A DNA stretch of 63,861 bases, the filler included, from Nemertoderma westbladi (lineage: Eukaryota; Animalia; Xenacoelomorpha), in assembly GCA_032718475.1 (NCBI GenBank). It is 4 parts of 4 records of this genome, joined end to end, with 100 filler letters (N's around TTAATTAATTAA, not from the genome) between each part and the next. Parts side by side here need not be neighbours in the genome. Positions count along the whole stretch, not along the records: positions 1 to 29,324 come from JAUCBJ010008686.1; 3 more parts are not named here. One strand, 5' to 3'. The notes under the pieces were generated by a model. The model saw nothing but the letters and a program-made list of their open reading frames with translations, did not search any database and was not told the DNA's origin. Made by a program: the position numbers and the translations under genes. Every line of letters starts with the position of its first letter. Position 1 is the stretch's first letter. Below are positions 4,626-48,246 of this stretch, in pieces.

Positions 4626-4724
4626 GGTGAGGGGGTTACTAAGCTGCGGTTATAGGGTATCATTTTATAGATTAAATAAAATTTTAAGATTTTAAAAAGA
4701 TTTTAAAAGATTTTGTATCATAAC

Positions 4725-9853: not shown

Positions 9854-11110
9854 TACCGGTAATAATAATATAATAGTTTAGATAGTTCAGTAGTTACCGC
9901 TAATCATTCAGTCATTGGCACGGTACACCGTATTGCTGTACTGCCGTTCAGCCGTTGTAGTGCGCACCGTAGGTACCACCCATGCGTAGGCTTACTGTGC
10001 TGATTATGGTTTGATTGATTGATTGTTTTTTACACATAATTAAACCTTTTAAAATTCACAATAATACATTTATAAAGATTACGTTACGATATTAGGCCTA
10101 CAGTACAAGTAGGCCTAATAACACTAGATATTTAGGAGCACCAATACTGATTTATGTAGATAGTCAACTTATAAAATGTTTATTTACTTAAATAAAAGGT
10201 TCTGGTGTAAGTATAGCCTCATGAGGTATATACAGTCCCGCTCTCAAAAAGCATTCCTTTGATCAAACATTGATCAAACTTTGATCAAACATTGATCAAA
10301 GTTTGATCAAAATGTGTCCATAGAATATCATTGAAAGTAGCATTGACATTGAAATGACATTGATGGCATATTGAAATGACCTTGAAATCGATGGACCGAA
10401 ATTCCAGACTTTCTGTCTCATATTGAAATGACATTGAAATGATTTCAAGGTAACAGTTTACATCGCTCTTCTGCGGCATGCCTTTGAACTCAGACTCCCG
10501 CCGAGAACTGGCTTTTGTTAATGGCCAAGCCGCGATGTGATTGACAGGGCGGTGGATGGAGCTTGCTTGACTTTGTGGATGGACAGCGATTGGATTTACA
10601 TGGCAGTGTTGTTGGTCTTGTTCTTGTAGGGCAGGGCCTATTATTACACTACAACTAGTTCAGAAAAACAGCCTTTGGAATATTTTTAAATGATTGTTAT
10701 ATTAGAAATTAGTTTCAATGTTCCTTAAATCAGAATCAAGGCCAAAGACCTCTCCATTGACGTAGCAGCGCGATGTCTGCCGTTGCACTGCCTTTGTTTA
10801 TACAGTAATTGTGTAAATTCGACAAGCTTCCTTCCTGCCCCTGTCTCTAATTATACTAATAAATGTAAATAAAGAAATAAATAAATCCAAGCGCCAGTGC
10901 CAGCGCACCCCCTAAAATACCTTCTAAAAATGTACGTAATTTAATTTTAATACTCTGATAAGGTAATTTTATTGAAAACCTAATTTGTTTTAAAGTAAAC
11001 TATGTTATGTACATCATTAGTTACGTATTTTTTAATTCAGTTTAACGTATTGTAATTATAATTTTTTAAATATTAAAAATCAAATTGGGTTAGTAATACT
11101 TATTAAATTG

Positions 11111-12357
11111 TGTTCGCGCTTTTGAAGACCTTTAGCAGTTTAACCTGCCAAAATTTATATGTCTTTTAGTTAATTAAAACCACTTTAGCATATGACAATA
11201 TTTTATGCTAATACGCAAAACACTAGCCGAAGTCAGCCCATGCGCGATCATTCACCCGATGGATCTACACCCGGGAGACTGAATTCGGATGCTTAAATTT
11301 TATTATTGCAGTGTAAGGTTGCAGTGTATACCTACTGTATTATTCGATAGATCGTTAATAATTAATCTCTGACAGATATTATTGGCTTTCGGGAAATATT
11401 AACAGTTCCTTTAGGACGTGGCGCTTTATCTATTTAAACAGAACTAAGACTTATACTAAAACGCAACGATACTGCTTATGATTGAAGTATAAAGCGTATT
11501 CTTTAAGAAATACTTTGTTACCAATCACAATCATACACACTATTCTGCTGACCGTCAGTATATTTGATCACACATAAAGAGAGCAGCAATTGACTCACGT
11601 AGGGTCTGCTAAATAACATTGGATTCAATACACACCACATTAATATAAATCGCAATTGTTATGTATAGCCGGTCTCTCTAACCTGTAGTGTATCAAGAAA
11701 ATTGGGAATTTGGGTGATTTATCCGTATTATCCAAAGAGCAATATTTCCATCAACAAATAGGTACAATTAATAACTGACGGTAAAATAACAGTACAAACA
11801 ATATGATTAATGCAATTAAATTAAGTGAGCATGTTAATTAGTGAGTTATTGAGATTAGTTAGGGTAACAGTTTATACTTTCGATAATTTAAGCAGTTTAC
11901 TAGAGTTCTTCCCAAAAAGCCGGTGTTTCTGGCTTAGACAGCAATAACAACAAAGTATCAAGTAAAAGCAGTAAGACTGAACACTCTCCTTATGATCGGC
12001 TGAAAAGCTACACGTCGACAGGAAAAATCGCTCTGATTGGCTCAAGCCAAACAAAGAACCATGCATCCAATGGCTGTTTCCATGTCAGCAACCAGCTGTT
12101 AGATGTCGTAATATGAATCATCACGGCTAAGCTGTGAAAGGTAGTTGGTGCATTACAGGTTTTTTGCCTTACCATGTCCGCCAAAACACGTATATAGCAG
12201 AATGACTTTTATGTCCGTTAAAACACCTGTAACGGTACCTTGCGGGCGAGGGGAATATATATACAGTTAGAGAACCTTTTTAGAGTATTCCAGCGCCTGG
12301 GGGGAAACTGGATTGCGAAGCAAAAGGGGCCAGTTATATCCCACAGAAGCTTTTACA
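11111..12357 (-). repeat. 3' LTR of the BEL/Pao element
   Basis: 1247 bp. By eye it differs from 21711-22952 by about 7 substitutions and a few small indels. Confidence 0.95.
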
Positions 12358-12365
12358 CCGCTCCC
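12358..12365 (-). promoter_or_regulatory. Polypurine tract (PPT) of the BEL element
   Basis: The minus strand reads GGGAGCGG immediately before the TGTAAAA start of the 3' LTR. Confidence 0.6.
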
Positions 12366-12435
12366 AGAAAATGGGATTTGAGTCTATAAATATACAAAAA
12401 TCACAGTTTCTAAAATATAAAAATACTCTAAACAG

Positions 12436-13482
12436 TTAGTCTTTCTTGCGCGGACGGCGTTTACGCAGTTTTTTAAAGCTAGCAAGAGTCCCTCTCTCTT
12501 TGGGGCGAGCCACTTTACGAGGAGGGCTATAACTCCTGGGTGAAGGGTGCAATATGATTGCATCAGAAGGTATGGGATTGCGATCGGTATATCCGCCGGT
12601 CGAAGTACCGGGTTGATTGACATCAACGTCCGGGGAGAGGGGTCTAACGGCTTTGAGAGCTCGTTTCAAGACAGCCGCTCTTACAGGTCCTTTACGAGTG
12701 GTCTGAACGAGGGCCGTGGGTGGACCATAGGCAGTTAGAAACTTCCTTGGTTTAATGGCTCTTTCCAACTCGCGTTCGCGGGCTCTGTACTCGTAAGGCC
12801 GTCGATATACTTCCTGTAACTCAGGGTGTGAGTTGACAAATAAGTCTCCATAGGCCGGATCTTGACGGATAAAGTTTATTAAGTTATACGAATTGATGTC
12901 ACTCGGATTAATGCTCCTGAGGAATTTGCGTACATATTTGGTTGAAATACATTCTCCAACGCGCTTCAATAGTTCATAACTTGATAGGCGCGATTTCTGC
13001 TCGACGGAGGCAAACAAATATGGATGGAACGCATAAACTCCTTCGTAGGCGCGTCCAGGATAATAGCGATGGCGTGAATCACAATATAAATCAGTGTTCG
13101 CTTCCCAAGCTCTGATGTAACGTAGTGTGATCATTTCATCTACGCTTTCCAAATCGTGATTAAAAGGGCAATCGAAACTGGCATGTCCCTTTAGTTGACA
13201 ATGGTGACATTGAGTCATAAATTGAGGGCAAACGGCAAAAATGTGCAAATTATTAAATCTGCAATACGCGCAATAAATTTCCATCGCCGGTTGTTCGTGG
13301 AAATAGGAACAGCGGACGTTTGTGTCCATGGGCGTATCATGGTCTCTCGATGCGCATAACCGACAACGTTGCCGAGAAGCATAGTTGGCATGGCGATAAT
13401 CGTACGCAGTGAGACACTGTGGACCTTGATACCATAATCGTTGTCGCTGTTCCGAGCGCGATAGGCTGAATCTCCTCAGATT
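12436..13482 (-). CDS. Accessory ORF of the BEL element: multi zinc-knuckle protein with a basic C-terminus
   Basis: The listed 297-aa ORF (ATG at 13329) stays open for 51 more codons up to 13482. Motifs include CRLCASRDH, CAYCRFNNLHIFAVC and CHHCQLKGHASFDC (CX2CX4HX4C), with a C-terminal KKLRKRRPRKKD. Confidence 0.65.
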   Translation of the reverse strand, partial: NLRRFSLSRSEQRQRLWYQGPQCLTAYDYRHANYASRQRCRLCASRDHDTPMDTNVRCSYFHEQPAMEIYCAYCRFNNLHIFAVCPQFMTQCHHCQLKGHASFDCPFNHDLESVDEMITLRYIRAWEANTDLYCDSRHRYYPGRAYEGVYAFHPYLFASVEQKSRLSSYELLKRVGECISTKYVRKFLRSINPSDINSYNLINFIRQDPAYGDLFVNSHPELQEVYRRPYEYRARERELERAIKPRKFLTAYGPPTALVQTTRKGPVRAAVLKRALKAVRPLSPDVDVNQPGTSTGGYTDRNPIPSDAIILHPSPRSYSPPRKVARPKERGTLASFKKLRKRRPRKKD

Positions 13483-13874
13483 CTAGACATATTGGTTCGT
13501 CTTCCCAGTCTGTTACGAATAGAATTTTCGTGATCTATTCTCGGTTTATCGTTACGACGCCGCTGGGTATGATATTTAAATAGAACCATTTCCCTTTCGG
13601 TGTCTACATCGTCCGTATCATGTAAATTGATAGGATGGCCGGTAGTTAAGAAGTCCATATACGTACCATTACGATGCGTATAGCGAGCGGTTAATTTTCG
13701 ATAGTCCAATTCACGCGTAAGTTGTTCCTGGGACATCAGCGGTTCGATATAACGACCATCGTCCTCCGTAATAGTCGGATCGGCTTCACCGCGTATCAAG
13801 CTATCCACAAACGCTTGTAAAGGTAGAGTATATCGCTCTCTAATATCAAGGTCATCTTCTATCAATTCCGTCAT
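13476..13874 (-). CDS. Accessory ORF of the BEL element, 132 aa, unknown function
   Basis: ATG-initiated ORF with protein-like composition. Its last codons overlap the start of the downstream open frame in the -1 register. Confidence 0.5.
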   Translation of the reverse strand: MTELIEDDLDIRERYTLPLQAFVDSLIRGEADPTITEDDGRYIEPLMSQEQLTRELDYRKLTARYTHRNGTYMDFLTTGHPINLHDTDDVDTEREMVLFKYHTQRRRNDKPRIDHENSIRNRLGRRTNMSRI

Positions 13875-15492
13875 ATCTGCTATCTGAGTTTATTAATATC
13901 AATATGAGTTAATATTTTAGGTAAGCGGGCGTCGCTGCCTACTAGACTTTTGCCCCCGGACAGTGGGTTTCTCAGCGCCGATGTACCGCTGTCGCAGTGT
14001 TTACGCCAACATGTAGCAACAGCACGACAACGATAACCGGCACAAGTCCCACCACTGTCCGTCCCAAAGGCTTGAATCCACTTGAGGTTATCTCGGTAGA
14101 GTTAGGGCTATTTTACAATTGCGATTAGCTACTGTAAACACACTTTAGTAGTAACATTCACCTATAAACGCACAAATTCCATACAATCATTACTTACTGC
14201 ACACCTGCATGCCATTTGTCCGTTAGTCAGTGTCTTCCAGAATGTCACGTTATTACTATGTATCCTTGGATACTAATAGTGCGCTATGTATACTCTTATG
14301 CTACGCAATGGGGCAAGCCTTTTATTGTTACTTTAACTTGCTTCTAATTCTAGCGTGGGTGTTGCCATGGTGACATTATGGAAAACTAGCGGTAGAATTA
14401 GGGCAATTCTCATGTATACAGATCTGGGATGTTATTTAATAGTAATTCTTTAATTGTCAATATCCTCTTTATGCATGATTTTATAAATTTTATCGTCTAT
14501 TGACTATATGTTGGAGATTCTCGCACTCTAGTACACTCAATATGAATCTCCGCTCCCATGATCTATTAATTACTGGAATTTTGGGAATGTTATAAATTGC
14601 ACAAAATGACAATTTATGAAATTCATTTGAATATGAATTTAAATTTATTCCCGTGAATTTTATTATTTGATGTTAAATTGACACAAATTTTATTCCAGAG
14701 CATATCTGGGGACTTAGGATCCTTAATTCTATAAAAATAGTCCTTCTAAGAATATCGGTAAATACTGCGATATCTTAATTGACTAGAAATTTTAAAGGAT
14801 CGGGATTTTACAGATTTTAATAAATATTAAATTAATATTTTAGGATGGGCACCGATTTATTCCAGAACTTGTCTGGGGACGTTAACCACTGATTCTAGAA
14901 TTTGTCTTTCAAGTATATCGGGGGGTGCCACGATATCTTAATCGACTAGAATTACAGATGGTCAAAAGTTTAACAGCTTTATTTGCGATTTACGCTACTG
15001 TTAGAGGGACATCACGCTACTATATGTATTATTTGTTATAAGGTAGAAGAGCAATATCGCACGAAGCAATGTCAGTGTGAAGAGGCAAGTCGTTTCCAAG
15101 GTCTACCCAGAGCTTGGTTTAGCCGAGACACGAGGATCTGAACTTTGCATTCCTAATACTCTGCCTACCAATAATACTTAAATATAGTAGTGGCTTTATT
15201 GTACTTTAAGAAGTACTGACATGTCATCTTACTATAGTCTCGCATTTATAATATAATACGGACAGTAAGGAAAGAGAAAATAATTACTTCTTGCCGTCGC
15301 ACTAAATATATTATAAGTAATTACGTAATAAACACTAATATATTGCACTAATCTACTAAACATTCTAAAATAACATTTTACTAAATAAAATTAAATAAAA
15401 CGATTATAATAAAATTACATAATAATACATACATAAATATAAAATAAAAACAAATATAAAATGATATAGTCACACGCCCACTCCACATGCTA

Positions 15493-18400
15493 TCACGTTA
15501 TGGAGTCCCTAGATATTTGCCGGATTAGGGAAGTAGTCGTAGGAAGAGTATCTTGTCTTCCATAGTTTTTGGACAGTTTTCGGTCTCTTTCCAGTAAACA
15601 TAAACGACTAGCTGGGCGATTGAGTTGTTGTGTTACTTTCTCCGCTCCCTTGGCCTGTCTAATTTCTGCCGTGGTAAGATGAGGAGGCCATTTTTCTTCT
15701 TCTTTACTTAAGGAGTCGGATCCACCTAACCAGCCTGGAGTATCTATCAGTTCTTGAGGAGTTGCTCCTCTGGAAGCGATGTCGGCTGGATTAATCGTCC
15801 CAAGGCAATGTCTCCATTGATCTACATTGGAGTTAATATCGTCATTATCTGAGGAGTATGGTGTTCCCTCAGTTGGGTCGTCCACATCACTGCTCTCCAC
15901 TTCCCCCTTTACTTGGTATACCTGTTGTTGAGGTAATCTCTCTTTGAGAGTTCTACGGGAAGGGCCAGTGAAGTACCAACCTACTCTAGTTCTTACCGCA
16001 TAGGTTTGTAGTGGCTGTGGTTGAGCAGGCCGTTTCTCTAATGGCTCGAGCGCCTCATGCGCGTTTTGGCCGATGAGTATTTGCACTCCAGGATAATCGG
16101 TTTGGAATCGAGGTATCTCAAGATGTTGGATGCACTCGTCCTCGTCCCAGTTATAAAGGTCTGCTTGGGTAGTAGCGAAGTTCTTTATAGCCACCATTTT
16201 TACTGACCTTATACTTTGTGCTCCTAATTTATCCTGGGGGGTGGACAACTCACCTACATAGTAATCTGCCGTTAGGGTAGATTTCCAAACCGGCATAATT
16301 CCTGACATATTCAATTTAGTCCGGAACTTGGGTTGTCCAGCAAAGATATCTTCGGCTAGTTCTTGATCGATGAATGTTCCTGTGCTGCCGGAGTCAAGTA
16401 GGGCGTTCACTATGTAACTCTTGTTGAGACCATGAACTCTTACCTGAACTACAGGAAATTCTCTGATTCCTACGTTGGAAGCTGGAGCTTTCCAAGATGG
16501 TTGTTTGGCGAAAGTAGTTTGGGGAAACTCATCGTTGATGTCTTTTTCGTAAGTAAGTGCTCGATACACTGCGGTATTTATTAGATAACAGGATTCGTTG
16601 GCATCGGAGAATTCGTCTGTATAGAATCCTTCCCACTCAGAACCTTGGTCAGTGTCGTTCACATCACTGAATTGGACATGTAGTTCGGGCTCACTTACCT
16701 GACTCGGGTTGTCTCGTTCGAACTCACTGTGTAACAAGATGTGATGTTTCGCGCCACACTTTGCACACTTTACGTCGGAGTAACAGGTTCGCCGTTGGTG
16801 TCCTGATCTGAGGCAATTATAGCATAACCGCTTATTCCACAGGACTGTACGTCTGTCTACAGGGGATTTCTTTAGAAATTCAGCACACGCACTCAAACGG
16901 TGGGGCCCGTCGCACAGCGCACATTTTGGTTTGATGTCACTCACCTTACCTTGGGTAACGTTATGCACTCTCGTTCTTTCTTCGGGCTTTCTTCCGTGAA
17001 TTCTCTTAGGAGACGTAGGAGGAGTTGTTGTTACCTGTTCTCTCCTGTCACTGATTCGAGACTTGTATTTACTTACGTCTTTATAGGTCTTGTTGTCATA
17101 GTAAGATTTTGCTGTGTCTTTCCCGCTGTCCTCTTCTTGAGAAGCTTGGCTTTCGCCGTCGTCAGTATAACACACTGGTATTATCCTTCTCCTAGAAACG
17201 GGTTTCTCACTTACCTTATTTTCCGATGTTTTCTCTCTGGACTGCCTTATGAGTTGTAATTTTACTTCACTATCTAAGAAGGACATGAGATCAGCCATGG
17301 TAGGACTTCGTCGTTGTTGTTCATTCATGTACAACACTTTCTTGTCCCAGCGTGTACATACTCCGCCCTTTGGTAAGGTAGAGACTACGGCTCCAATAAC
17401 CATGGAACTCTGATATTCATGCGACTTACCTAACCAGTCCAGTTGTCTACAGATCTCTTGAATCTCATCGGAAAACTCTATAATCCCGCTACTAAGGAAG
17501 TGTCGGGGGGCTACTAATTTTGCATACAAATACTTAGCTATGTTATCCTTGTTACCATACCTGATGTTTAATGTATCCCAAACTTGTCTTAATCCATCTG
17601 GATGTCCAATAAACTTTAACGCCATTAACTTGGGAGGTCCTTCCAAGCACTTGATGAGGAATCTAAGTTTCTCTCCGTTAGATAGTACAGAGTTCTGTAT
17701 GCTATCTTTGTAATATTCGTTGAAAGGTAACCATTTCATCTCATCTCCATTGAATTTGACGATCTCTCCCACTTTGACCGCTTGGCGGGCTTCTGTTCTA
17801 GCCATCTGACGCGTAAAGCTTTCTTGGGCCATCGTGTTATTTAATATCGAATTATCGGTATATAAATTTCTCGGATCATTATCAGGTCTATAGGGAATAT
17901 CATTAATAACAGGTCTATAATCACCCTTAATAGGGTTTGCTATAGGAGTTTCAACTTCACTAGCAGTATAGATGCGTGTAGGCTCCACACCTTGCGCATG
18001 TAATACTTCAGACCTAACAGGTTGACACAATGTTACAGGGGGTATTGGTATGCCCTTTTGTATATTGACTAATTTGTCGCGTTCTAGCGCGATACTTTGC
18101 TGCACTTCTTGCAACTCTGCTCTACCTTCCCTCACTGTTCCCTTAAGTTGGTGGACAGTCTCCTGCATCTGTCCTAGCAGGAGATTCATCCCCCGCCGTC
18201 CCTCTTCCACCCACTCAACCGCCGAAGCGGGAGTCGCCAACATAGTAGCGGGCTGACGCGGGACGACGGGAGACAAATTTTTGATTTCTCTCTCTGCTAT
18301 CTGGACAGGGATATTCTCTTGGACTGCTCCACCGGGTACAGGCAGTGTAGTACTATGTAAAGGGAATTTAGAGTTAAGCTCTGGAAGTACAGGGGTCTCT

Positions 18401-19644
18401 AACACAGAAGTGATTTTGGGAACGACAGGCCTAATTATCTCAGGCTCATCAACTATTGTAGGGAGTCTTTGAACCTTAATACTTTGGGCTGTAGGTTCTG
18501 TACTACCTAAGTCTGTGCTAGCTAGTTGTCTTCTGACAGCTGGGGGCAAATCAGGCAGTTTATGACGGTGAGATGTTTTTCTACGCCTGCTTAGACGAGA
18601 TCTATTTCCTCCGCCTTCGGGATCGGTGGTTTCGCTTTCCTCCGATGATGTGTATCCTTGGCGTTTTGGAGTAGATCGTCTCATCCTCTGCATTCGACTA
18701 GCAGTTAGATGTTTATTTATGTAGTCTTGCGTCTCTTGCAGATTTTCCAACTCCAGTTGGGCAGTCTCCTCAGACGCTCTCCGTTCTGCTTCTGCCACTG
18801 CCTTTGCCATTGCCGCTGCCGCCTTTCTTTCTGCTTCTGCTACCGCTGCCTTTCCTTTTGCTTCTACATCCGCTGCCTTTCTTTCTGCTTCTACTTCTGC
18901 CGCCGCCTCTGCTGCTTCTGCTTCTGCCGCCTTTACTGCTGCTGCCTTTCGGTTCTCTATCTGTTTTTTCTTTATTTGTTCTTCTTGGACTCTAACGAGG
19001 CGGAGTTTTTCATCACGTTTAGCTTGTTCTGCAGCTAACATTTCCGCATCGATTGCGTCCAACACAAGCTTGGTTCCTTCACTATTAGGGCGAAGTCCAG
19101 ACAGTCGTCTCCTCAACTCTTCGTCTCCTATGAATCGCTGATAGTCTGACAGATATATGTCAATGGCGTCTCTAGTTCGCAGCTTCTCTGCGGCCGTTAA
19201 TTCGCTTTCCACTTCGCTTTCCACTTGAGAAGAAGTGGCGTCGGCTGATTCTTCATAGGTTGGCCGCTCATCATAAACCGTATCCGCCATCTTCGCTCCG
19301 CGTTCGGGTGTCCGCTCAGCAGTGTCCGAACTACTGGAGCTATCGGGACGCTGAGAACTAGGTTCTTGGCTAGGATGTTGCTGCGGTTTGACAGCTGCTT
19401 CTTGATCCCGCTTGACTTGGGCGCAAGTGCCGATGATAGACCTACGCTGTTCTACTAGCCTAGGGTCTGACACTACTACTGTAGGGGTGGCCTTTCTTTC
19501 AATAGTAGGTGACTTAGACTTGGATCTGGGATGTTCTATACTTTGATCTTGGTCACAGATCCTTTTAATACGCTGTCTAAGTCTAATACTCATTCTAACA
19601 CTTTCTAAGACACTATCTGACAGTGATTGGGTTGCGTCTGACAT
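15493..19644 (-). CDS. BEL/Pao Gag-protease polyprotein with internally deleted pol
   Basis: 1383 aa. Contains a coiled-coil N-terminus, a BEL Gag core (KFNGDEMKWLPF..EKLRFLIKCLEG..LNIRYGN), three knuckles (CALCDGPHRLSAC, CYNCLRSGHQRRTC, CAKCGAKHHILLH) and the protease ALLDSGS..ILIG..RTRVGWYFTGP. After that there is only the RNase H tail WRHCLGTINPADIASRG..WP and the Pol terminus RPASRLCLLE. No YxDD or integrase motifs. Confidence 0.9.
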   Translation of the reverse strand: MSDATQSLSDSVLESVRMSIRLRQRIKRICDQDQSIEHPRSKSKSPTIERKATPTVVVSDPRLVEQRRSIIGTCAQVKRDQEAAVKPQQHPSQEPSSQRPDSSSSSDTAERTPERGAKMADTVYDERPTYEESADATSSQVESEVESELTAAEKLRTRDAIDIYLSDYQRFIGDEELRRRLSGLRPNSEGTKLVLDAIDAEMLAAEQAKRDEKLRLVRVQEEQIKKKQIENRKAAAVKAAEAEAAEAAAEVEAERKAADVEAKGKAAVAEAERKAAAAMAKAVAEAERRASEETAQLELENLQETQDYINKHLTASRMQRMRRSTPKRQGYTSSEESETTDPEGGGNRSRLSRRRKTSHRHKLPDLPPAVRRQLASTDLGSTEPTAQSIKVQRLPTIVDEPEIIRPVVPKITSVLETPVLPELNSKFPLHSTTLPVPGGAVQENIPVQIAEREIKNLSPVVPRQPATMLATPASAVEWVEEGRRGMNLLLGQMQETVHQLKGTVREGRAELQEVQQSIALERDKLVNIQKGIPIPPVTLCQPVRSEVLHAQGVEPTRIYTASEVETPIANPIKGDYRPVINDIPYRPDNDPRNLYTDNSILNNTMAQESFTRQMARTEARQAVKVGEIVKFNGDEMKWLPFNEYYKDSIQNSVLSNGEKLRFLIKCLEGPPKLMALKFIGHPDGLRQVWDTLNIRYGNKDNIAKYLYAKLVAPRHFLSSGIIEFSDEIQEICRQLDWLGKSHEYQSSMVIGAVVSTLPKGGVCTRWDKKVLYMNEQQRRSPTMADLMSFLDSEVKLQLIRQSREKTSENKVSEKPVSRRRIIPVCYTDDGESQASQEEDSGKDTAKSYYDNKTYKDVSKYKSRISDRREQVTTTPPTSPKRIHGRKPEERTRVHNVTQGKVSDIKPKCALCDGPHRLSACAEFLKKSPVDRRTVLWNKRLCYNCLRSGHQRRTCYSDVKCAKCGAKHHILLHSEFERDNPSQVSEPELHVQFSDVNDTDQGSEWEGFYTDEFSDANESCYLINTAVYRALTYEKDINDEFPQTTFAKQPSWKAPASNVGIREFPVVQVRVHGLNKSYIVNALLDSGSTGTFIDQELAEDIFAGQPKFRTKLNMSGIMPVWKSTLTADYYVGELSTPQDKLGAQSIRSVKMVAIKNFATTQADLYNWDEDECIQHLEIPRFQTDYPGVQILIGQNAHEALEPLEKRPAQPQPLQTYAVRTRVGWYFTGPSRRTLKERLPQQQVYQVKGEVESSDVDDPTEGTPYSSDNDDINSNVDQWRHCLGTINPADIASRGATPQELIDTPGWLGGSDSLSKEEEKWPPHLTTAEIRQAKGAEKVTQQLNRPASRLCLLERDRKLSKNYGRQDTLPTTTSLIRQISRDSIT

Positions 19645-20892
19645 GTTTGTTTACACAGTTGAATGCCTACGGCTATAAATACAGTCAAAGTAAGTCTAGT
19701 AATTCAGTATCACCGTTAGCCTAACAATTAATTACCGATACTGCTACTCAGTGTAGCGTGATATATATATAATATATTAGAATACCGGTATGCTTATAGT
19801 ATATATATAAGTATTAGTACAGACTAGATTTGTCACAGAGTACCGGTATATAATTTTAGCACAAATATATATAAATATATATAATAAGCCTATGGTAAGT
19901 ACCGGTATGTCAATTATTTTTTAGAATAATTGAATTTCTGAATATTTTAGGGTTACTTGGTTACTTTAACTTACTTTATTACCGTTATTTAAGCAGTAGT
20001 CCAACTGATAGTGAGACCTAGTTGTTGTATGGCAGGCCTATTATTTATAAATCGTTTGATTTGATTTATAATATTTATATACCCGTTTATATGGGTTTTT
20101 GTCAATATTTGAAATAAATGTTATTATTTCTGGGGGAGTCACTACACAGAAGCTGTACGCTCTCAGTGAAGTGCTATTTATGGGACACTAAAACAGATAA
20201 TTCTAATTTACCTAAGTTACTTAATACTACAAATTACTTACGATACGGGTGAGATTAAATCTCTAGTTAAACACAACAAAAATATTACGTACGAAATTTT
20301 TAGGGTAATTTTACAGGAAGTCTACAAACCAGCCTAACAAAGGGTTAGAATTCTGGTTATTACAACGGACAGGGTACTACGGTATTTGAAATAATAAGTA
20401 GTAGTAAATATACTGTACTGTCCAGATAGGAAAATACCACCGCCTGACGACCTATAACCGTATCGCTATAGGTACTACGTTATGTATCACGGATTGTTCC
20501 TACCCAGAAGCTAATAGAGCTAACGAATGTGCCTATCAACCACTTTACAACACAAATATACTGCCTACACTAATTACTTCGGAAAGCACTGTACACTAAA
20601 CCCTAAATTAGGTACAAGTACCGGTATAACAAATAATCAGTAGTTAAATATACTTGAACAGTTAAAAGAACCACGGCATCTGCTGGAGTGACCGAAGCAC
20701 AAAGTCGTCAGTCTTTACCTACGCCAAGCAGCCCTGATGTAGTACCGGGGTTAGTTTAACTATAACGGTATGTATAACAAGCACAATTACTGTAGGAATA
20801 AACTTGGGGACATGAATGTTGCGAATAATCGCATAAACTCTGAATAATAAATATTACGCTACCCGTACAGAATACTCAAACAAATACAAACC

Positions 20893-21420
20893 AAACGCTG
20901 GCAGACTACTATTAAGCCTAAACAAACTACAGTATGTGCAGATTCTGAAACTGTTAGTTAGTATGCGTTCTAACACGGTAGTACGACTTACTCTTTAAGA
21001 GGGGATTGACCTTACCGCTTATGGCTGCCCCAACTTACTAACGGCACTTGATCAGACCAACTCTACACACGCAGCAATCCCTTCAGACCCAAAAATAGCC
21101 AGACAACAATCCAGCCTACAAATATTTGAGTAATAACTATTACGGTACCTGAACAGACCACACAAACAAACACAGGCTAAAACACTGGCAGACTACGATC
21201 AAGCCTAAATAAACTACAGTATATGCAGACTCTGAAACTGTTAGTTAGTATGCGTTCTAACACGGTAGTACGACTTATTCTTTAAGAGGGGATTGACCTT
21301 ACCGCATATGGCTGCCCCAACTTACTAACGGCACTTTATCAGACAAACTCTACACACGCCGTAATCTCTCCAAACTCAACAACAGTCAGACAGCAGCTCA
21401 GCCTACAATTATCTGAACAA
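20893..21420. repeat. Tandem ~287-bp duplication in the BEL 5' leader
   Basis: CTGAAACTGTTAGTTAGTATGCGTTCTAACACGG occurs at 20945 and 21232 with flanking similarity. Confidence 0.85.
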
Positions 21421-21697
21421 TCTGAGCAGGGTCACACGCCTTCTGCTCAATATTAGCCTACTAGGAAATAAAACCGACAGAAATAGGTAAAATCTCAATA
21501 AAAATTCAGGGCTGCAGTCCCTGATTAAGTACTAAGACCTACCAGTATACAATAATCAAATCGAATAATACTAAATGTACTTGTACAGCAGTACCGGTAC
21601 CGGTGATGACAGTTAGGCCTACTGACCTACAAAGTACCGGTTCAGTTTTACCAGTCACTACGGTATTTTGCAACCTTATTGCCTACTGCAATAAGAT

Positions 21698-21710
21698 TAT
21701 AAACTGTTAC
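21698..21710 (-). promoter_or_regulatory. Atypical primer-binding site, complementary to an LTR-internal 13-mer (candidate self-priming PBS)
   Basis: Sense GTAACAGTTTATA lies directly after the 5' LTR end. Sense TATAAACTGTTAC lies at 22475-22463 inside the LTR. There is no TGG tRNA-type PBS. Confidence 0.65.
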
Positions 21711-22952
21711 TGTTCGCGCTTTTGAAGACCTTTAGCAGTTTAACCTGCCAAAATTTATATGTCTTTTAGTTAATTAAAACCACTTTAGCATACGACAATA
21801 TTTTATGCTAATACGCAAAACACTAGCCGAAGTCAGCCCATGCGCGATCATTCACCCGATGGATCTACACCCGGGAGACTGAATTCGGATGCTTAAATTT
21901 TATTATTGCAGTGTAAGGTTGCAGTGTATACCTACTGTATTATTCGATAGATCGTTAATAATTAATCTCTGACAGATATTATTGGCTTTCGGGAAATATT
22001 AACAGTTCCTTTAGGACGTGGCGCTTTATCTATTTAAACAGAACTAAGACTTATACTAAAACGCAACGATACTGCTTATGATTGAAGTATAAAGCGTATT
22101 CTTTAGGAAATACTTTGTTACCAATCACAATCATACACACTATTCTGCCGACCGTCAGTATATTTGATCACACATAAAGAGAGCAGCAATTGACTCACGT
22201 AGGGTCTGCTAAATAACATTGGATTCAATACACACCACATTAATATAAATCGCAATTGTTATGTATAGCCGGTCTCTCTAACCTGTAGTGTATCAAGAAA
22301 ATTGGGAATTTGGGTGATTTATCCGTATTATCCAAAGAGCAATATTTCCATCAACAAATAGGTACAATTAATAACTGACGGTAAAATAACAGTACAAACA
22401 ATATGATTAATGCAATTAAATTAAGTGAGCATGTTAATTAGTGAGTTATTGAGATTAGTTAGGTAACAGTTTATACTTTCGATAATTTAAGCAGTTTTAC
22501 TAGAGTTTCTAGAGCCGGTGTTTCTGGCTTAGACAGCAATAACAACAAAGTATCAAGTAAAAACAGTAAGACTGAACACTCTCCTTATGATCGGCCGAAA
22601 AGCTACACGTCGACAGGAAAAATCGCTCTGATTGGCTCAAGCCAAACAAAGAACCATGCGTCCAATGGCTGTTTCCATGTCAGCAACCAGCTGTTAGATG
22701 TCGTAATATGAATCATCACGGCTAAGCTGTGAAAGGTAGTTGGTGCATTGCAGGTTTTTTGCCTTACCATGTCCGCCAAAACACGTATATAGCAGAATGA
22801 CTTTTATGTCCGTTAAAACACCTGTAACGGTACCTTGCGGGCGAGGGGAATATATATACAGTTAGAGAACCTTTTTAGAGTATTCCAGCGCCTGGGGGGA
22901 AACTGGATTGCGAAGCAAAAGGGGCCAGTTATATCCCACAGAAGCTTTTACA
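21711..22952 (-). repeat. 5' LTR of the BEL/Pao element
   Basis: 1242 bp, sense TGTAAAAGC...GCGCGAACA, with a sense AATAAA near 21904-21899. Confidence 0.95.
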
Positions 22953-23692
22953 AATTGTGCTCATTCATTTTTAATTAATGGAGGTTTTTAACCATCCGGC
23001 CGACAAACCACACTTTTGCTCACAGGTCGTTGTAAGACAAGGCATCAATATAACCCCAGTGATCCCATACCCTCTCTTGTTGTGGACTATTACTATATCA
23101 TTGTACAAGCTGCGGACCTGCACCCCCCCCCCCCCTCCCCCCCCACCCATTATAATGTGTTGTAGTCATCCACCCAACCCATTGCGTAACTCAGAATTAA
23201 ACTCCACACAGCACAGCCCATACCTGCCATTGCTTTCATAACGCCACATCGCCAAGTGGAGATTCAATTGTGGCTGTTATTTTCTGATAATCGCTGTGAA
23301 TTATTATAATCATAAGATTGACAACACAGTGTTGTGGTAGTGTACCAGTACCAGAGTGTTGTGGTAGTGTACCAGTACCAGACTGAGTCTTGTAATAGGA
23401 CCCACTAACAACTCCGGGCACGTTCTGAAATAAAGCCTCTGGAATATTATTAAATTATTCACTAGAAAGCCAGTATCAATATAAGTCTGCCCGACAGCGG
23501 TTGTGATTATAGCTGACTGATTTTTTCGTGGAATATTGGATTGAACGAAGACAGATAATAACTATCAAATTCGTAGGTGTGCACAGTAAGAAGTCCTAAC
23601 GTCTTTCTAATAAAGTTCCTTACATTTCCTTAGGTATTCACTTACTTATTCACTTACTTATTCTAATTTCTTGGGAAGACTTTAGTAAAGTT

Positions 23693-26600: not shown

Positions 26601-27853
26601 CGTTGCTCATTGTTGCTCATTGTTGCTCGTTCTTGTACTTTATTATTGCTTGTTATTGCTCATTGTTGCTCGTTGTTGTTCGTTGTTGCTCATTGTTGCT
26701 CGTAGTTGCTCATTGTTGCTCGTTCTTGTACTTTATTATTGCTTGTTGTTGCTCATTGTTGCTCGTAGTTGTTCGTTGTTGCTCATTGTTGCTCGTTCTT
26801 GTACTTTATTATTGCTTGTTATTGCTCATTGTTGCTCGTTGTTGTTCGTTATTGCTCATTGTTGCTCATTGTTGCTCGTAGTTGTTCGTTGTTGCTCATT
26901 GTTGCTCATTGTTGCTCGTTGTTACTCATTATTGCTCGTTGTTGCTCATTGTTGCTCATTGTTGCTCGTAGTTGCTCATTGTTGCTCGTTCTTGTACTTT
27001 ATTATTGCTTGTTATTGCTCATTGTTGCTCGTTGTTGTTCGTTGTTGCTCATTGTTGCTCGTAGTTGTTCGTTGTTGCTAATTGTTGCTCGTTGTTACTC
27101 ATTGTTGCTCATTGTTGCTCGTTGTTGCTTATTGTTGTTCGTTGTTGCTCATTGTTGTTCGTTGTTGCTCATTGTTGCTCGTTCTTGTACTTTATTATTG
27201 CTTGTTATTTCTCATTGTTGCTCGTAGTTGCTCATTGTTGTTCGTTGTTGCTCATTGTTGTTCGTTGTTGCTCATTGTTGCTCGTTCTTGTAATTTATTA
27301 TTGCTTGCTGTTGCTAATTGTTGCTCATTGTTGCTCATTGTTGTTCGTTGTTGCTCATTGTTGTTCGTTGTTGCTCATTGTTGCTCGTTCTTTTACTTTA
27401 TTATTGCTTGTTGTTGCTCATTGTTGCTCGTTGTTGCTCATTGTTGTTCGTTGGTGCTCATTGTTGCTCGTTCTTGTACTTTATTATTGCTTGTTATTGC
27501 TCATTGTTGCTCGTAGTTGCTCATTGTTGTTCGTTGTTGCTCATTGTTGTTCGTTGTTGCTCATTGTTGCTCGTTCTTGTAATTTATTATTGCTTGCTGT
27601 TGCTAATTGTTGCTCATTGTTGCTCATTGTTGTTCGTTGTTGCTCATTGTTGTTCGTTGTTGCACATTGTTCATCGTTCTTGTACTTTAATATTGCTTGT
27701 TGTTGCTCATTGTTGCTCGTAGTTGTTCGTTGTTGCTCATTGTTGCTCGTTCTTGTACTTTATTATTGCTTGTTATTGCTCATTGCTGCTCATTGTTGCT
27801 CATTGTTGCTCGCTGTTGGTCATTGTTGCTCGTTGTGCATTTTAGCACCTACC
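26601..27853. repeat. 10-bp-based TTG-rich minisatellite (ATTGTTGCTC/GTTGTTGCTC)n
   Basis: Tandem units with interspersed GTACTTTATTATT variants, ending in GTGCATTTTAGCACCTACC. Confidence 0.95.
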
Positions 27854-28859: not shown

Positions 28860-29324
28860 TGTTCGCGCTTTTAGACCTTTAGCAGTTTAACCTGCCAATT
28901 ATAATTGTCTTTTTGTATATCAATTATTTAATGTACTGAAGTTACATCAGCCGAAGCCAGCCTGTGCGCGACCATTCACCCACAGTTAAGGGAGACTGGA
29001 TTCGGATGCTTTGATAGTGATTGCAGTGTAGACCTACTGTATTATTCGATTGATCGTTAATATATAATCTCTGACAATATATTTACTTTCGGGGAAATAT
29101 TAACAGTTCCTTTAGGACGTGGCGCTTTAAGTATAAAACAGAGTTATGACTTATACTAATCACAACTGGATGGCTACTGAGTTTCGTAAAAAGCGCATTC
29201 TTTAGGAGATGCTTTATTAACCTTCACACTACTTCACACGACTTCACACTAGTTCACACTACTGCGCACTGATCTGCCGACCGTCACTGAATTTGATCAT
29301 ATATAAGGAGGATCGCAACTGACA
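28860..29324 (-). mobile_element. Diverged LTR fragment related to the BEL LTR (cut by the spacer)
   Basis: Starts TGTTCGCGCTTTTAGACCTTTAGCAGTTTAACCTGCCAA and aligns to the first ~480 bp of 11111/21711. Confidence 0.85.
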
Positions 29325-29424
29325 NNNNNNNNNNNNNNNNNNNNNNNNNNNNNNNNNNNNNNNNNNNNTTAATTAATTAANNNNNNNNNNNNNNNNNNNN
29401 NNNNNNNNNNNNNNNNNNNNNNNN
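29325..29424. other. Artificial assembly spacer (44 N + TTAATTAATTAA + 44 N)
   Basis: The identical 100-bp construct recurs three times, and the 12-mer is a six-frame stop linker. Confidence 0.95.
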
Positions 29425-31144: not shown

Positions 31145-33561
31145 GGGTAGGGTACCCCAATTCCGGACAGAATTTAGATTTTTCCTTTATTGTAGCTCAA
31201 CCATAGTTTATTCCAATCAAAAGATGATTCTAACAGTACAGGACATTATCCTACATCAAAATAAAATCTTAACATTGAGTGCCCAGCGCCATCTAATGGG
31301 CGCAAATGGGCACTTTTTTTTACAAGATTGGGTTGTCCGGTATTTGGGCAGGTGCCCAATTTCCGGACAGAGTATAAATTTGTCTCTGCCTATGTCTGTT
31401 TGCTATACAAATCTATAGTTTACATTATAGAAAGGTGCCTAAAACCCGAATACATGTATCACCATGCTGCCAGGGGGTGGGGGGTCTGTTCACTTGTCTA
31501 CCTGTTTGTTTGTCTGTCTTTCCACCACTTAAAAACACTAGTTCATGAAAGTCAGAATTCATACAATTTTCCGATTTGCACAACTTTTTTTTGTTTTGAA
31601 TTTCTAAGCAAGCACAATTCGTTAATGTCAATAATTTGTAAACCAACCTGTCATTTGTCTGTCTGTTCGTTTGTCTGTCTGTTCGTTTTTCTGTCTAGCC
31701 ATTTCTATGCTGTATAATTTCTATTTTCTATTAAATTATATTTATCATTTCTATTAAATTTCTATGCAGTTGAAATTCTAAGCAAACACAATTTGTTAAT
31801 GTCAGAATGTCAATAATTTGTAAACCAACCTGTCATTTGTCTGTCTGTTCGTTTGTCTGTCTGTTCGTTTTTCTGTCTAGCCATTTCTATGCTGTATAAT
31901 TTCTATTTTCTATTAAATTATATTTATCATTTCTATTAAATTTCTATGCAGTTGAAATTCTAAGCAAACACAATTTGTTAATGTCAGAATGTCAATAATT
32001 TGTAAACCAACCTGTCATTTGTCTGTCTGTTCGTTTGTCTGTCTGATCGTTTTTCTGTCTAGCCATTTCTATGCTGTATAATTTCTATTTTCTATTAAAT
32101 TATATTTATCATTTCTATTAAATTTCTATGCAGTTGAAATTCTATGCAAACACAATTTGTTAATGTCAGAATGTCAATAATTTGTAAACCAACCTGTCAT
32201 TTGTCTGTCTGTTCGTTTGTCTGTCTGTTCGTTTTTCTGTCTAGCCATTTCTATGCTGTATAATTTCCATTTTCTATTAAATTATATTTATCATTTCTAT
32301 TAAATTTCTATGCAGTTGAAATTCTAAGCAAACACAATTTGTTAATGTCAGAATGTCAATAATTTGTAAACCAACTTGTCATTTGTCTGTCTGTTCGTTT
32401 GTCTGTCTGTTCGTTTTTCTGTCTAGCCATTTCTATGCTGTATAATTTCTATTTTCTATTAAATTATATTTATCATTTCTATTAAATTTCTATGCAGTTG
32501 AAATTCTAAGCAAACACAATTTGTTAATGTCAGAATGTCAATAATTTGTAAACCAACCTGTCATTTGTCTGTCTGTTCGTTTGTCTGTCTGTTCGTTTTT
32601 CTGTCTAGCCATTTCTATGCTGTATAATTTCTATTTTCTATTAAATTATATTTATCATTTCTATTAAATTTCTATGCAGTTGAAATTCTAAGCAAACACA
32701 ATTCGTTAATGTCAGACTCAGAATGTCAATAATTTGTAAACAAACCTGTCATTTGTCTGTCTGTTCGTTTGTCTGTCTGTTCGTTTTTCTGTCTAGCCAT
32801 TTCTATGCAGTATAACTATCAATCACTGTAAAATGATGATGAGTTGATAATAATTCAATATATTATATAAATCTCAGATACCACAGATACAAGATAACAC
32901 AGGTACATGCTGTAATAATGATTAAAAGGATTTATATCACTAACTAAAAAATTGGGAAAATGTTGATGGAATTTAAAAAATGTTAAATGGCCAACTCAAG
33001 CATTTGGTACGGTCAACTAGTTTCGTTTACTACTACCTGTAAAGATAATAGACACCAGCTAGACAACCAAAAAGTTGCTGACAAAACTTTGAACAAAACC
33101 TAGGCATATTTACAATTATTTATTTATTCATGTCAGCATGTAGACTGTAGGTAGGGCTATTGACTATTGTGTAGGGTTAATCAGATATTATAAATCGAGA
33201 AAATTAGAGCAATTATAGTATAAAATAATTAGCAGATTAGAGCAAATTCAAATAGGCCTATTACTGTATTATATTACAGTATTACGATAGTATAGCAATA
33301 GCTGTATAGCAAAAGTCAGGACTTATGTAACTGACTATCGCCTATTCTGAGGGCCCTTTACACATTTAGGCCTAATCTACTAATCAATTCAGTAATAAAA
33401 GTAATGCAATGCAGTACAGAGTACAGACAGACAGACACGTTACAGAAAAACCGCAGAATTCTTAATTTTCGTGGTACAAATTTGTGTTGAATAAGTGGTT
33501 TGTCCGGAATTTGAGTAGGTTGTCCGGAATTTGCAATGTCCGGAATTGGGGTACCTTACCC
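31145..33561. mobile_element. Non-autonomous TIR element (TA-flanked, Tc1/mariner/pogo-like) carrying a 182-bp tandem array
   Basis: The TIR GGGTARGGTACCCCAATTCCGGACA is present at both ends, each flanked by TA. Confidence 0.8.
31600..32815. repeat. 182-bp tandem repeat, ~6.7 copies
   Basis: GTCAATAATTTGTAAA recurs at 31627, 31809, 31991, 32173, 32355, 32537 and 32725. Confidence 0.95.
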
Positions 33562-34990: not shown

Positions 34991-35688
34991 TTATAGGTAC
35001 ATGAAGCATGACAGATGAGAGACAGCCAGACAGCTGTTAAGTTATGGAAAGCTACCTTTGCAGCTCTGTATGTATCTTCAGTGTACTGCTGTACTGACTG
35101 TACTGTACCGGTACTTAGAATAAAATGGTACATTCTAGCATTATAGGTCAGTAGGTCAGTCGGGCACTTTGTCAATATTGACATGTGTCAATATTGACAG
35201 GTAAAGCTAATTTCTCCAGGATGGAGCATGTCAAAATTGACATGGACATGTCAATATTGACATTTTTTTACCTGACGTGTTCAAATATTTCCAGACGTGT
35301 TTTCTAAATATAAAAATCGAAATTATAAGTAAATTAGAAACTTTTGACCGTGCGGAAAATTTTTTCACCGTGCGGAAAATTTTTTCACCGTGCCGTTTAG
35401 TTAATATAAATACTTAAAGTTTTTATCATGTTAAAATTGACATACATGTCAAAATTGACATGTAATGATGAGAACATAAGTGTGGGGTTAGGCTGTAGGC
35501 CACGCCACCCTATCAGCCTACAGACTATACTATAACTAGGGCTCAACAGAAGCTTCGGCTTCGGTTCGGGCCGAAGTTTGGCAATTTCGGTTCGGTTCGG
35601 CTTCTGCAATTGATACTACAGAAGCCCGGAGCAAACTTTGCTAAATATTCCAAGTATTACATTGACTGATTGAGCTAAGACCAGAAAG

Positions 35689-36514
35689 TAGGGCTCGATC
35701 GGAGCTCCGGCCTCCGGCTCCGGCTCCGGCCATTTTGGCACCTCCGGCTCCTGCTCCGGCTCCGGTAAAAATATTGCCGGAGTTAATTTTTTAATAAAGT
35801 ATTATATTTCGTGCATATTCTAATCTGAACAATTATTTAACACTATAAGTAGGCCTACTGTAGTACAGCTTCAATATCAAGTATAATCTGACTGTCTGAT
35901 AATACTGCAGTATTTACTTAAAGTCAATGACTGGCTGACTGTACTGCAGTAGGCCTACTGGTACTGGCCAGCTGGCTGACTAGCAGACTATTACAGATAG
36001 GCCCTACTTTAAAAAATTGTAAATGCTATGATTGTACACTGTCAGACTGTACCACTGCAGCCATTTACTGCTGTCAAGCATGCCAGCATACTGTACTGCA
36101 GTACTGGTACGTACACGTACGGTAGGCTACCTACAGTACACACCTCTACCACAGTTAGACAGTTAGCGAGTTAGGTACCGGTACTGTAGGTAATTTTTAG
36201 CCGTCAGCGTCAGGCCGTCGCCGTCAGCATCAGGCCGTCGCCGTCAGCGTCAGGCCGTCTGTCCGTGATAAATTAATTACTTAAAGTTTAAATTGAAAAT
36301 TCGTAAATCTATAAATTATGAAATTAATTAGACCTACAGTATGATTGATTATGAGCGATTGGCGAACGATAACCATACTTTATTTTTTTTTAAATAAATA
36401 ATTAAATTTTTAAAAATTTTGAAAAACTCCGGCTCCTGCTCCGGCTCCGGCCAAATTGTCCAACTCCGGCTCCTGCTCCGGCTCCGGCCAAATCCCAACT
36501 CCGATCGAGCCCTA
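35689..36514 (+). mobile_element. hAT-type MITE, copy 1
   Basis: TIR TAGGGCTCGATCGGAG, subterminal (CTCCGG)n and 8-bp TSD CCAGAAAG. Confidence 0.9.
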
Positions 36515-36593
36515 CCAGAAAGACAGTAAGACTAATCAATCTGTCCATCGTGTTGTACAAATTAATTTTGGGGTGTAAACGTTAAGCAGACAC

Positions 36594-37757
36594 TAGTGCA
36601 GAGCAGACATTCAGACAGTGGTGCAGAGCAGACAGTGATGCAGACACCTGGTGCAGACAGTGGTGCCGACACTGGTGCAGACAGTGGTGCAGACAGTGGT
36701 GCGGACACTGGTGCAGACACTGGTGCAGACAGTGGTGCAGACACTGGTGCAGACATTGGTGCAGACAGTGGTGCAGACAGTGGTGTAGACAGTGGTGCAG
36801 ACACTGGTGCGGACACTGGTGCAGACAATGGTGCAGACAGTGGTGCAGACACCTGGTGCAGACAGTGGTGCAGACTTTGGTGCAGACACTGGTGCAGACA
36901 CTGGTGCAGACTGTGGTGCAGACACTGGTGCAGACATTGGTGCAGACACTGGTGCAGACAGTGGTGCGGACACTGGTGCAGACAGTGGTGCGGACACCTG
37001 GTCCAGACAGTGGTGCAGACACTGGTGCAGACACTGGTGCAGACAGTGGTGCAGACAGTGATGCAGACAGTGATGCAGACACCTGGTGCAGACACCTGGT
37101 GCAGACAGTGGTGCAGACATTGGTGCAGACAGTGGTGCAGACAGAGGTGCGGACAGTGGTGCAGACAGTGGTGCAGACAGTGGTGCAGACACCTGGTGCA
37201 GACAGTGGTGCAGACAGTGGTGCAGACAGTGGTGCAGACACTGGTGCAGACAGTGGTGTGGACACTGGTGCAGACAATGGTGCAGACAGTGGTGCAGACA
37301 CCTGGTGCAGACAGTGGTGCAGACAGTGGTGCAGACACTGGTAAAGACTTTGGTGCAGACAGTGGTGCAGACACTGGTGCAGACAGTGGTGCAGACACTG
37401 GTGCAGACATTGGTGCAGACACTGGTGCAGACAGTGGTGCGGACACTGGTGCAGACAGTGGTGCTGACAGTCTGACAGTGTTGCAGACACCTGGTGCAGA
37501 CAGTGGTGCAGACAGTGATGCAGACAGTGATCCAGACACCTGTTGCAGACACTGGTGCAAACAGTGGTGCAGACACTGGTGCAGACATTAGTACAGACAG
37601 TGGTGCAGACAGTGGTGGAGACACTGGTGCAGACAGTGGTGCGGACACTGGTGCAGACACCTGGTGCAGACAGTGGTGCAGACACTGGTGCAGACAGTGG
37701 TGCAGACACTGGTGCAGACAGTGGTGCAGACACTGGTGCATACAGTGGTGCAGACAC
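36594..37757. repeat. 12-bp minisatellite (TGGTGCAGACAG/AC)n
   Basis: Roughly 95 units. It is the source of the many overlapping low-complexity ORFs. Confidence 0.95.
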
Positions 37758-37759
37758 AT

Positions 37760-38405
37760 GCATCATGCTGCATGAAGGCCTTTTAGCAGTTTCTACAGCC
37801 CTTTTCAGCATTTATCATGCTGCACGAAGGCATCTGAACAGTTTCAACAGCTATTTTCAGCATTCTCATATTGCACAAAGCCCTCTGAACAACTTCAAAT
37901 GTTATTTTTTAGCATTTATGCTGCATGAAGGACTTTGAACAGTTTTATAACTTTCAACAGCAATTTTCAGCTTTTCTCATGTTGCACGAAGCCATCTGAA
38001 CAATTTCAACTGTTATTTTCAGCATTTATCATGCTGCATGAAGAACTCTGTGAACAGTTTTATCAACTCTTTTCAGTATTTCACATTCTGTGCGAAGGCC
38101 TGAAAGTTTCAAAACTTATTTTCAGTCTTTCTCAAGCTGCTCGAAGACCTCTGAACAGTTTCAACAGCTCTTTTCAGCATTTATCATGCTGCGAACATTT
38201 TTAACATCTCTTTTCAGCATTTATCATGCTGCACAAAGCTCTGAATAGTTTCATTTCAAAATCTTTTTTCAGCGTTTATCATGCTGCACAAAGTTCAGAA
38301 GGTCTCTAAGCAGCTTTGAGAGATCTTTTATGTATTTTTCAAACTGTGCGAAGGCCCCTGGGCAGTTTTATCAGTTTTTTTCAGTTTTTCTCATGACACA
38401 TGCTG
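37760..38405. repeat. Degenerate ~43-bp tandem repeat
   Basis: Recurrent TTTTCAGCATTTATCATGCTGCACGAAG..CTGAACAGTTTCAAC units. Confidence 0.7.
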
Positions 38406-38514
38406 ACAGGTTTAACAATTACTGAATTATGGAAGTGCCTTAAAAATAGCATTAGCTGTTTAAAAATTTCGGCTCGCTTCGCTCGCCTTTCTTTTTCTGT
38501 TGTAGGGTTCAGTG

Positions 38515-44484: not shown

Positions 44485-44816
44485 GCATAATACTCTAAAA
44501 GTTTAATACTGTAATATTCTGACATAGGCAATTGAAAATTGGTCTGGTAGGCCCAGCCTAGCCTAGGCACTTTCTCCAACTCCACTCCATCCATCATACT
44601 GTCATAAATCTTTAAAATAACCATATTCAAATTCTCTGGCAGCCTGGTTTAACCTCTCAGATCACAATAATGAATTTTGATTACAGCTGACCTGCCAGCA
44701 GACCGGTCTTTTCTGATTTACTTTCACTTCTATTATTAGCCCCGCATTAGTTACTATTATTAGTTACCGCATCCAGTCAAGTTACTGGTACCACAAGGAA
44801 TTTGAATTTTCGAGTT

Positions 44817-48146: not shown

Positions 48147-48246
48147 NNNNNNNNNNNNNNNNNNNNNNNNNNNNNNNNNNNNNNNNNNNNTTAATTAATT
48201 AANNNNNNNNNNNNNNNNNNNNNNNNNNNNNNNNNNNNNNNNNNNN
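48147..48246. other. Artificial assembly spacer
   Basis: 44 N + TTAATTAATTAA + 44 N. Confidence 0.95.

Follow-up and report, generated by a model that had tools for sequence, protein, structure and literature searches.

The window, a stretch of 63,861 nucleotides from the genome assembly of Nemertoderma westbladi (GCA_032718475.1), contains a minus-strand LTR retrotransposon that spans 11111-22952. The 5′ LTR (22952-21711, 1242 bp) and the 3′ LTR (12357-11111, 1247 bp) share 98.7% identity across 1248 aligned columns and differ by 10 substitutions and 7 gap positions; both begin with TG and end with CA, and CAATT abuts the element on either side (22953-22957 upstream, 11106-11110 downstream) as a 5-bp target-site duplication. 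Because these termini and flanks define it, the LTR end is fixed independently of any pairing described below. The 3′ LTR is preceded by a polypurine-tract-like GGGAGCGG (12358-12365), and similar tracts are found in related loci. The element belongs to a high-copy family, 11,177 contigs of DNA run X1 mapping onto 1361 bp.

A single Gag-protease ORF of 1385 codons, stop to stop (15493-19650, minus strand), carries a DUF1759 domain (PF03564, E 7.8e-12) with three Cys/His knuckles and a protease motif in the same frame. Seven BEL polyproteins match this ORF in Gag, most of them in the protease region too, and all seven also match an in-frame remnant of 49 codons (15831-15685; tblastn E 2e-9 to 1e-4), whose counterpart in the polyproteins sits about 500-700 residues further on and which we assign to the terminal part of BEL RNase H. 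Comparison with the same seven polyproteins gave no reverse transcriptase (RT) or integrase match in the element, and most of RNase H is missing. The closest proteins are approximately 30% identical to the element and 9 of the 11 scanned carry PF05380 (Pao peptidase A17), so that the earlier assignment to BEL/Pao is upheld for Gag, knuckles and protease. The element is therefore a non-autonomous member of BEL/Pao that has kept Gag and protease and lost RT and integrase, and any priming of such a copy needs the enzyme of a helper element. In the Gag-protease tree the element forms a long branch without a firm place among its relatives. Two overlapping extra ORFs of 137 and 348 codons, the second Cys/His-rich, occupy 12436-13889 near the 3′ end; neither has a Pfam family, nor a match in the best 80 of 568 BEL loci described below. 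The 2-kb leader contains two direct copies of approximately 288 nt, 87% identical (20841-21416), both of which match the primer site over 9 nt.

In the window, four contigs are joined by N spacers with TTAATTAATTAA (29325-29424, 48147-48246 and 59425-59524), and tandem arrays lie at 52373-59424, 46711-48146, 31596-32815, 26602-27853 and 36572-38395, one of them with about 119 copies of a 58-nt unit. Non-LTR-type endonuclease-RT and RT fragments are present at 40073-42968 and 49155-51359, RT and RNase H fragments of another LTR element at 61424-62466, a SCAPER N-terminal domain in a single open frame of 671 codons at 44751-46766 and two MFS transporter frames at 608-1417 and 4718-5500. Long inverted repeats at 35686-39353 (~830 nt) and 1-511/9364-9853 (~510 nt) could be the ends of foldback or DNA transposons.

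The primer site is complementary to the LTR

The 13 nt that follow the 5′ LTR (sense GTAACAGTTTATA, 21710-21698) adjoin the LTR end with no gap and form the putative primer-binding site. The 18-nt site for tRNA-Arg or tRNA-Gly is not present, as there is no TGG after the LTR; the window contains no tRNA gene and the element has no tRNA-like or convincing Rfam match. Instead, the exact reverse complement of the site is found within the 5′ LTR at 22475-22463 (LTR positions 478-490), as the predicted self-primer segment TATAAACTGTTAC, and again in the 3′ LTR at 11876-11864. On recomputation the coordinates, the gapless adjacency to the LTR, the missing TGG and the exact 13-nt complement reported in the preliminary description all hold. 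Under a self-priming criterion of at least 10 nt of LTR complement starting 0-5 nt from the LTR end, the element gives 13 nt at offset 0. For the LTR, Markov models of order 0-2 predict 7e-5 to 2.6e-4 matches of 13 nt; among 9323 internal positions a 13-nt LTR complement occurs at one, the post-LTR site itself, and elsewhere in the window, counting both strands, 4 of 119,460 positions reach this length. When the site was shuffled 500 times by dinucleotide, 3 of the shuffled sequences reached the energy of the primer-site duplex.

Two other roles for these sequences were considered and rejected. A primer built by splicing within this LTR would require non-canonical donors (22467, 22746) at the junctions giving at least 12 nt, and the TATAAA of the segment is absent as a TATA box from the diverged LTR part described below. 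The block at ~21930-22060 is the most conserved between the two LTR sub-families, and it contains AACTGTTA, an 8-nt stretch that forms a second complement of the primer site and persists in the diverged LTR.

Variation within the family

Junction variation was read from contigs of three DNA runs from three studies (X1, X3 and X5) and expressed as summed contig depth. No substitution at 1% or more was found at bases 2-13 of the primer site in the three runs; base 1 changes from G to A (sense) in 19.9% of summed depth in X1, 11.8% in X3 and 0% in X5, and the TTT run of the site shows a 1-nt deletion at 1.7-6.4%. Base 1 might serve as a spacer or belong to a compensated pair. Over the whole junction region, 4 of 116 positions vary at 1% or more, and this conservation is consequently not specific to the pairing. 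No contigs of run X7 mapped here. The LTR segment (22463-22475) has no variant among the 40 listed of 214.

A diverged sub-family is represented by two half-LTRs, each cut by an N spacer and located on different contigs with different flanks: a 3′ part (29323-28860), 72% identical and with an unrelated flank, and a 5′ part (48787-48247). The preliminary description had placed an equivalent site in the latter; the plus-strand ATAATAGCTATG is indeed present at 48317-48328, giving a candidate primer segment (48328-48317) that ends in AT, as in 2 of 15 relatives, while its homology to the segment of the element is borderline, the shared 18-nt block being the best local match with a score equalled by 12 of 300 shuffles. 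The primer site predicted for this diverged LTR is not among the 18 loose ends listed of 44.

Contigs in four runs break at 21716 with identical loose letters (10 contigs in X1, 2 in X3 and 5 in X5), and a single X4 contig returns from 21716 to 21668 with 35 letters between. From these contig sequences, some copies carry a tandem 84-nt repeat composed of the last 6 LTR nucleotides, the primer site and the leader helix arm. The loose letters of X4 were considered as a different primer site and rejected, as they are plus-strand letters that mark the tandem repeat of the site. The low depth over 22428-22473 in X4, tentatively an RNA run, is common to the DNA runs.

Predicted folding of the LTR and leader RNA

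Folding predicts a second duplex between an LTR segment (21903-21932) and the leader 3′ of the primer site (21694-21662), for which pair probabilities are mostly 0.7-1.0; the leader arm can alternatively form a local hairpin. When folding was restricted to nested structures, the 13-bp primer helix reached a probability of 0.5-0.7 only for RNAs running from 22475 to 21660 or 21600, and 0.0 if the RNA was extended to 21500 or begun at 22520; one reason for this loss in longer RNAs is that the second helix crosses the 13-bp helix. With primer and site blocked, three structures form together: a 26-bp second helix, a 6-7-bp helix between 21813-21819 and the LTR end (21719-21713), which is the weak third duplex of the constrained fold, and a hairpin near the LTR end (21753-21730) whose core is kept in the diverged LTR. 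The blocked fold at -199.2 kcal/mol and the primer duplex at -13.9 kcal/mol are together more favourable than the unconstrained fold at -203.3 kcal/mol, pseudoknot penalties not being counted, and cis folding that includes the primer duplex is predicted to be energetically possible.

The second helix was compared with shuffled sequences, 13 of 500 reaching it by energy and 18, 4 and 37 of 2000 under three alignment scores (p 0.002-0.03); by energy it lies outside the top 15 of 1166 windows, and a comparable helix was found in none of 12 relatives (best, 21 of 300 shuffles). It is with moderate confidence that a second LTR-leader helix is modelled as flanking the primer site. Each arm seems to contain an internal duplication, and just one unit of the LTR arm occurs in the diverged LTR (28860-29323); the LTR and leader arms are possibly a matched duplication, the read pieces being unlinked. 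The sole AATAAA of the LTR, a candidate poly(A) signal, lies at 21899-21904 and is not kept here in the diverged LTR.

Self-complementarity in other BEL/Pao elements

Metagenome loci were fetched with 16 aligned BEL polyproteins, and the best 80 of 568 confirmed loci were used; a search of viral contigs with a BEL alignment gave no confirmed locus. The LTR of the westbladi element has no nucleotide match in these 80 loci, and a conserved 21-nt LTR-end pattern gave 0 matches in viral and metagenome contigs. The test set comprised 12 non-redundant elements in which the 5′ LTR end was fixed by a second LTR copy at the same or a sibling locus. Redundant siblings were set aside, as were three loci with ends not at CA, two of which have no self-complement (L007, L058) and one a self-complement of 12 nt (L035). 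Nine of the 12 elements have a self-complement of 10-13 nt that starts 0-5 nt after the LTR, compared with 6 of 1810 internal control positions. This complement is contiguous in L013 and L076 and is found only across a predicted splice junction within the LTR in the other seven (L002, L009, L046, L049, L069, L074 and L075). Accepted junctions combined an acceptor rich in pyrimidines with a donor of the GT(A/G)AG or GTACG type, a donor list that was fixed after an initial scan allowing any GT-AG, whose null was low too. The other three elements, which show no self-complement of this length, are L034, which has a TGG-type site, and L057 (9 nt) and L060, which remain under the cut; in both L057 and L060 the LTR pairs are diverged.

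The nine self-matching elements represent six sequence types, four of the nine sharing one site core. Cross pairings of at least 10 nt occur in 15 of 132 combinations, 12 of these among the four elements that share the core, and when the site of a relative was set against the LTR of the westbladi element or the reverse, 0 of 24 combinations pair. In a blind scan of 7 further loci with the LTR end unset, 6 gave a match among 118 candidate ends. A quick tree of Gag-protease places L046, L049, L036 and L042 in one clade (SH-aLRT 96) with four different sites, each complementary to the LTR of its own element and beginning with GT at zero offset, like the site of the westbladi element; it also places the spliced L008 as sister to the contiguous L013 (SH-aLRT 99). 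Covariation between primer site and LTR motif, which the preliminary description had put forward as a check on relatives genome-wide, is seen at the level of BEL/Pao families of other genomes (9/12; six sequence types).

Canonical LTR introns of 77-426 nt are predicted in twelve relatives (L002, L005, L008, L009, L021, L036, L042, L046, L049, L069, L074 and L075), and their predicted junctions complement the primer sites. Like that of the element, the paired segment terminates in AC in 13 of the 15 relatives; the remaining 2 have AT. The segment lies at 0.28-0.59 of LTR length in relatives and at 0.38 in the element, and the distance from the segment to the LTR end is 62-216 nt in the 15 relatives versus 752 nt in the element. 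A poly(A) signal follows the segment by 11-97 nt in 8 of 9 elements from the first set and in 3 of 6 from the blind set, which fits a segment at the start of R. An initiator motif is not enriched upstream of the segment (5 of 9, then 1 of 6 held out), and the earlier proposal that transcription starts near 22475 gains no support from this test. Given that the segment of relatives spans a splice junction, it need not begin at nucleotide 1 as it does in Tf1. At one locus (L022:1-15890) tandem BEL copies are spaced by 6138 nt and are 100% identical, which reflects either tandem insertion or an assembly artefact.

Discussion

The ICTV describes an 18-nt primer site for tRNA-Arg or tRNA-Gly in Belpaoviridae and considers the replication of BEL/Pao to be poorly understood (PMC8742986). 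Self-priming is described for Tf1/sushi elements, Tj1 and Tosmo in the available text of PMC4600332, PMC5341516, PMC10085805 and PMC5443660, and for Tf1 the RNA's first 11 bases anneal to the site and RNase H cleaves after base 11 (available text of PMC7175516), two more helices between site-adjacent and LTR sequences completing a three-duplex 'pretzel' (available text of PMC10085805). In plants, self-priming has been predicted from sequence for Tcn1 (Ty3/gypsy) and TAR (Ty1/copia), the criterion being an LTR complement of at least 10 nt that starts 0-5 nt past the 5′ LTR (accessible part of PMC6317226). For BEL/Pao, no report of self-priming was found in searches of the open-access literature, in agreement with the state of knowledge on which the preliminary description had asked for a check, the ICTV stating tRNA priming. 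The accessible parts of PMC3118150, PMC554778, PMC2996953, PMC9094657 and PMC2774666 hold nothing on BEL priming; BEL LTRs are not modelled in that of PMC3601003, and that of PMC3286476 treats gypsy and non-autonomous elements.

The element resembles Tf1/Tf2, Tj1 and Tosmo in that its primer site complements an LTR segment and has no tRNA 3′-end signature, and its RNA is predicted to be able to form a three-duplex layout similar to that of Tf1. Nevertheless, Tf1/sushi elements are Ty3/gypsy chromoviruses, whereas the proteins of the element are of the BEL/Pao type and place it outside that clade. The two also differ in dimensions, since Tf1 uses 11 bases from the 5′ end of its RNA while the element has 13 nt, a 752-nt loop and a segment that need not begin at base 1, and in construction, since BEL relatives build the segment across an intron and the westbladi copy has no RT. 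The element satisfies the same sequence criterion as plant Tcn1 and TAR, which are gypsy and copia elements, and the accessible part of PMC6317226 has no BEL/Pao case. With Belpaoviridae it shares the DUF1759 Gag, three knuckles, protease, TG...CA termini, 5-bp duplication and polypurine tract; it departs from them in having no tRNA-type site, RT or integrase and in having extra 3′ ORFs. By analogy, the best reading is that the element works like Tf1 and is, by Gag and protease, a BEL/Pao member and not one of the Tf1 clade.

It is suggested that reverse transcription of the element is probably primed by an RNA segment from its own LTR and not by a host tRNA. Two parts of this proposal, which was already that of the preliminary description, have gained ground, namely the non-chance complement and the family-level covariation elsewhere, and one has not, as the initiator test for a start at 22475 failed. 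Transcription would start at 22475 or some way upstream, and the splice-built primers of relatives suggest that additional 5′ sequence may lie ahead of the paired stretch. The RNA of 22475-22463 would then anneal to 21710-21698 with 752 nt looped out, aided by the flanking helix between the leader (21694-21662) and the LTR (21903-21932). RNase H of the helper element's RT would cut after the paired segment, as in Tf1, and leave a 3′ OH at the LTR edge, from which RT would copy U5 and R back to the cut before jumping to the 3′ LTR. Plus-strand synthesis would copy the primer and so maintain the match between site and LTR segment.

The comparison with relatives places this proposal in a wider setting, and on the best reading of the sequences self-priming would not be peculiar to the westbladi copy. 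There is no canonical intron across the segment in the LTR of the element, which is likely the intron-less state, and the lineage likely carries a ready-made form of the spliced primer. More broadly, it is slightly more plausible than its opposite that a large part of BEL/Pao has abandoned tRNA priming for a self-primer that ends in AC and is usually spliced across an LTR intron, that loss of the intron gives ready-made primers such as the one described here, and that a second LTR-leader helix here carries the primer over the 752-nt loop to its site.

It is also conceivable that the same LTR segment primes in trans, supplied by the other packaged RNA or by a short LTR transcript that a solo LTR or a helper produces, in which case the 5′ end of the primer would lie upstream of 22475. 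This is a variant of priming by the element's own LTR RNA and is in part included in the confidence placed in it. LTR copies are very numerous (the 11,177 contigs of X1 on 1361 bp), cis folding is uncertain given the 752-nt loop and a second helix that crosses the first, and the primers that relatives build by splicing depend on an exon upstream, all of which would suit a primer in trans. Priming in trans is nonetheless unlikely for two reasons: first, cis priming of the Tf1 type has precedent (available text of PMC7175516). Second, cis folding is energetically possible in the folding model.

The primer could be half of a host tRNA or another small RNA of the host, with the LTR match secondary as a structural switch or a copy of the site. 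The segment contains CTGTTA, which resembles an Asn anticodon loop, and the relative L034 has a TGG-type site. Furthermore, the ICTV names tRNA-Arg or tRNA-Gly for Belpaoviridae (PMC8742986) and half-tRNA primers are known in Ty1/copia (accessible part of PMC6317226). A host RNA would not track the LTR, however, and the six different sites of relatives match their own LTRs, in seven of nine elements only across a splice junction, which counts against such a primer, as do the lack of a tRNA gene in the window and of a tRNA-like Rfam match in the element; a host primer is accordingly regarded as improbable.

Slightly less probable again is that the complement is due to chance, or to a long-range pairing with another role such as packaging or translation control, with priming elsewhere. 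The AT-rich sequence, the instability of the helix in nested folding and the fact that the covariation observed is that between families of other genomes are all compatible with this. Against it, the expectation at the sole relevant position is ~1e-4, and the self-complement recurs in 9 of 12 relatives. Finally, priming by the element's own 3′ end, through polyadenylation cleavage at the end of the segment and annealing of that end to the site, is very improbable: the TATAAA inside the segment, which we take to be a weak poly(A)-signal variant, lies just 7 nt before the segment end, no AATAAA or ATTAAA is present upstream of the segment, the sequence downstream is C/A-rich, and in 11 of 15 relatives the poly(A) signal is downstream of the segment.

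If many BEL/Pao elements self-prime, as the sequence comparison suggests for the element and its relatives, self-priming would be found in all three LTR-retrotransposon superfamilies. Annotation tools that require a tRNA match would miss such primer sites, and control by tRNA fragments could not act at them. The start of reverse transcription would be tied to the spliceosome, and the spliced forms raise the question of how a single transcript can lose the intron from its 5′ LTR copy while retaining that of the 3′ copy. The westbladi element adds a contiguous, long-loop case of BEL/Pao self-complement, and would represent a cis signal retained in an abundant element whose enzymes are gone.
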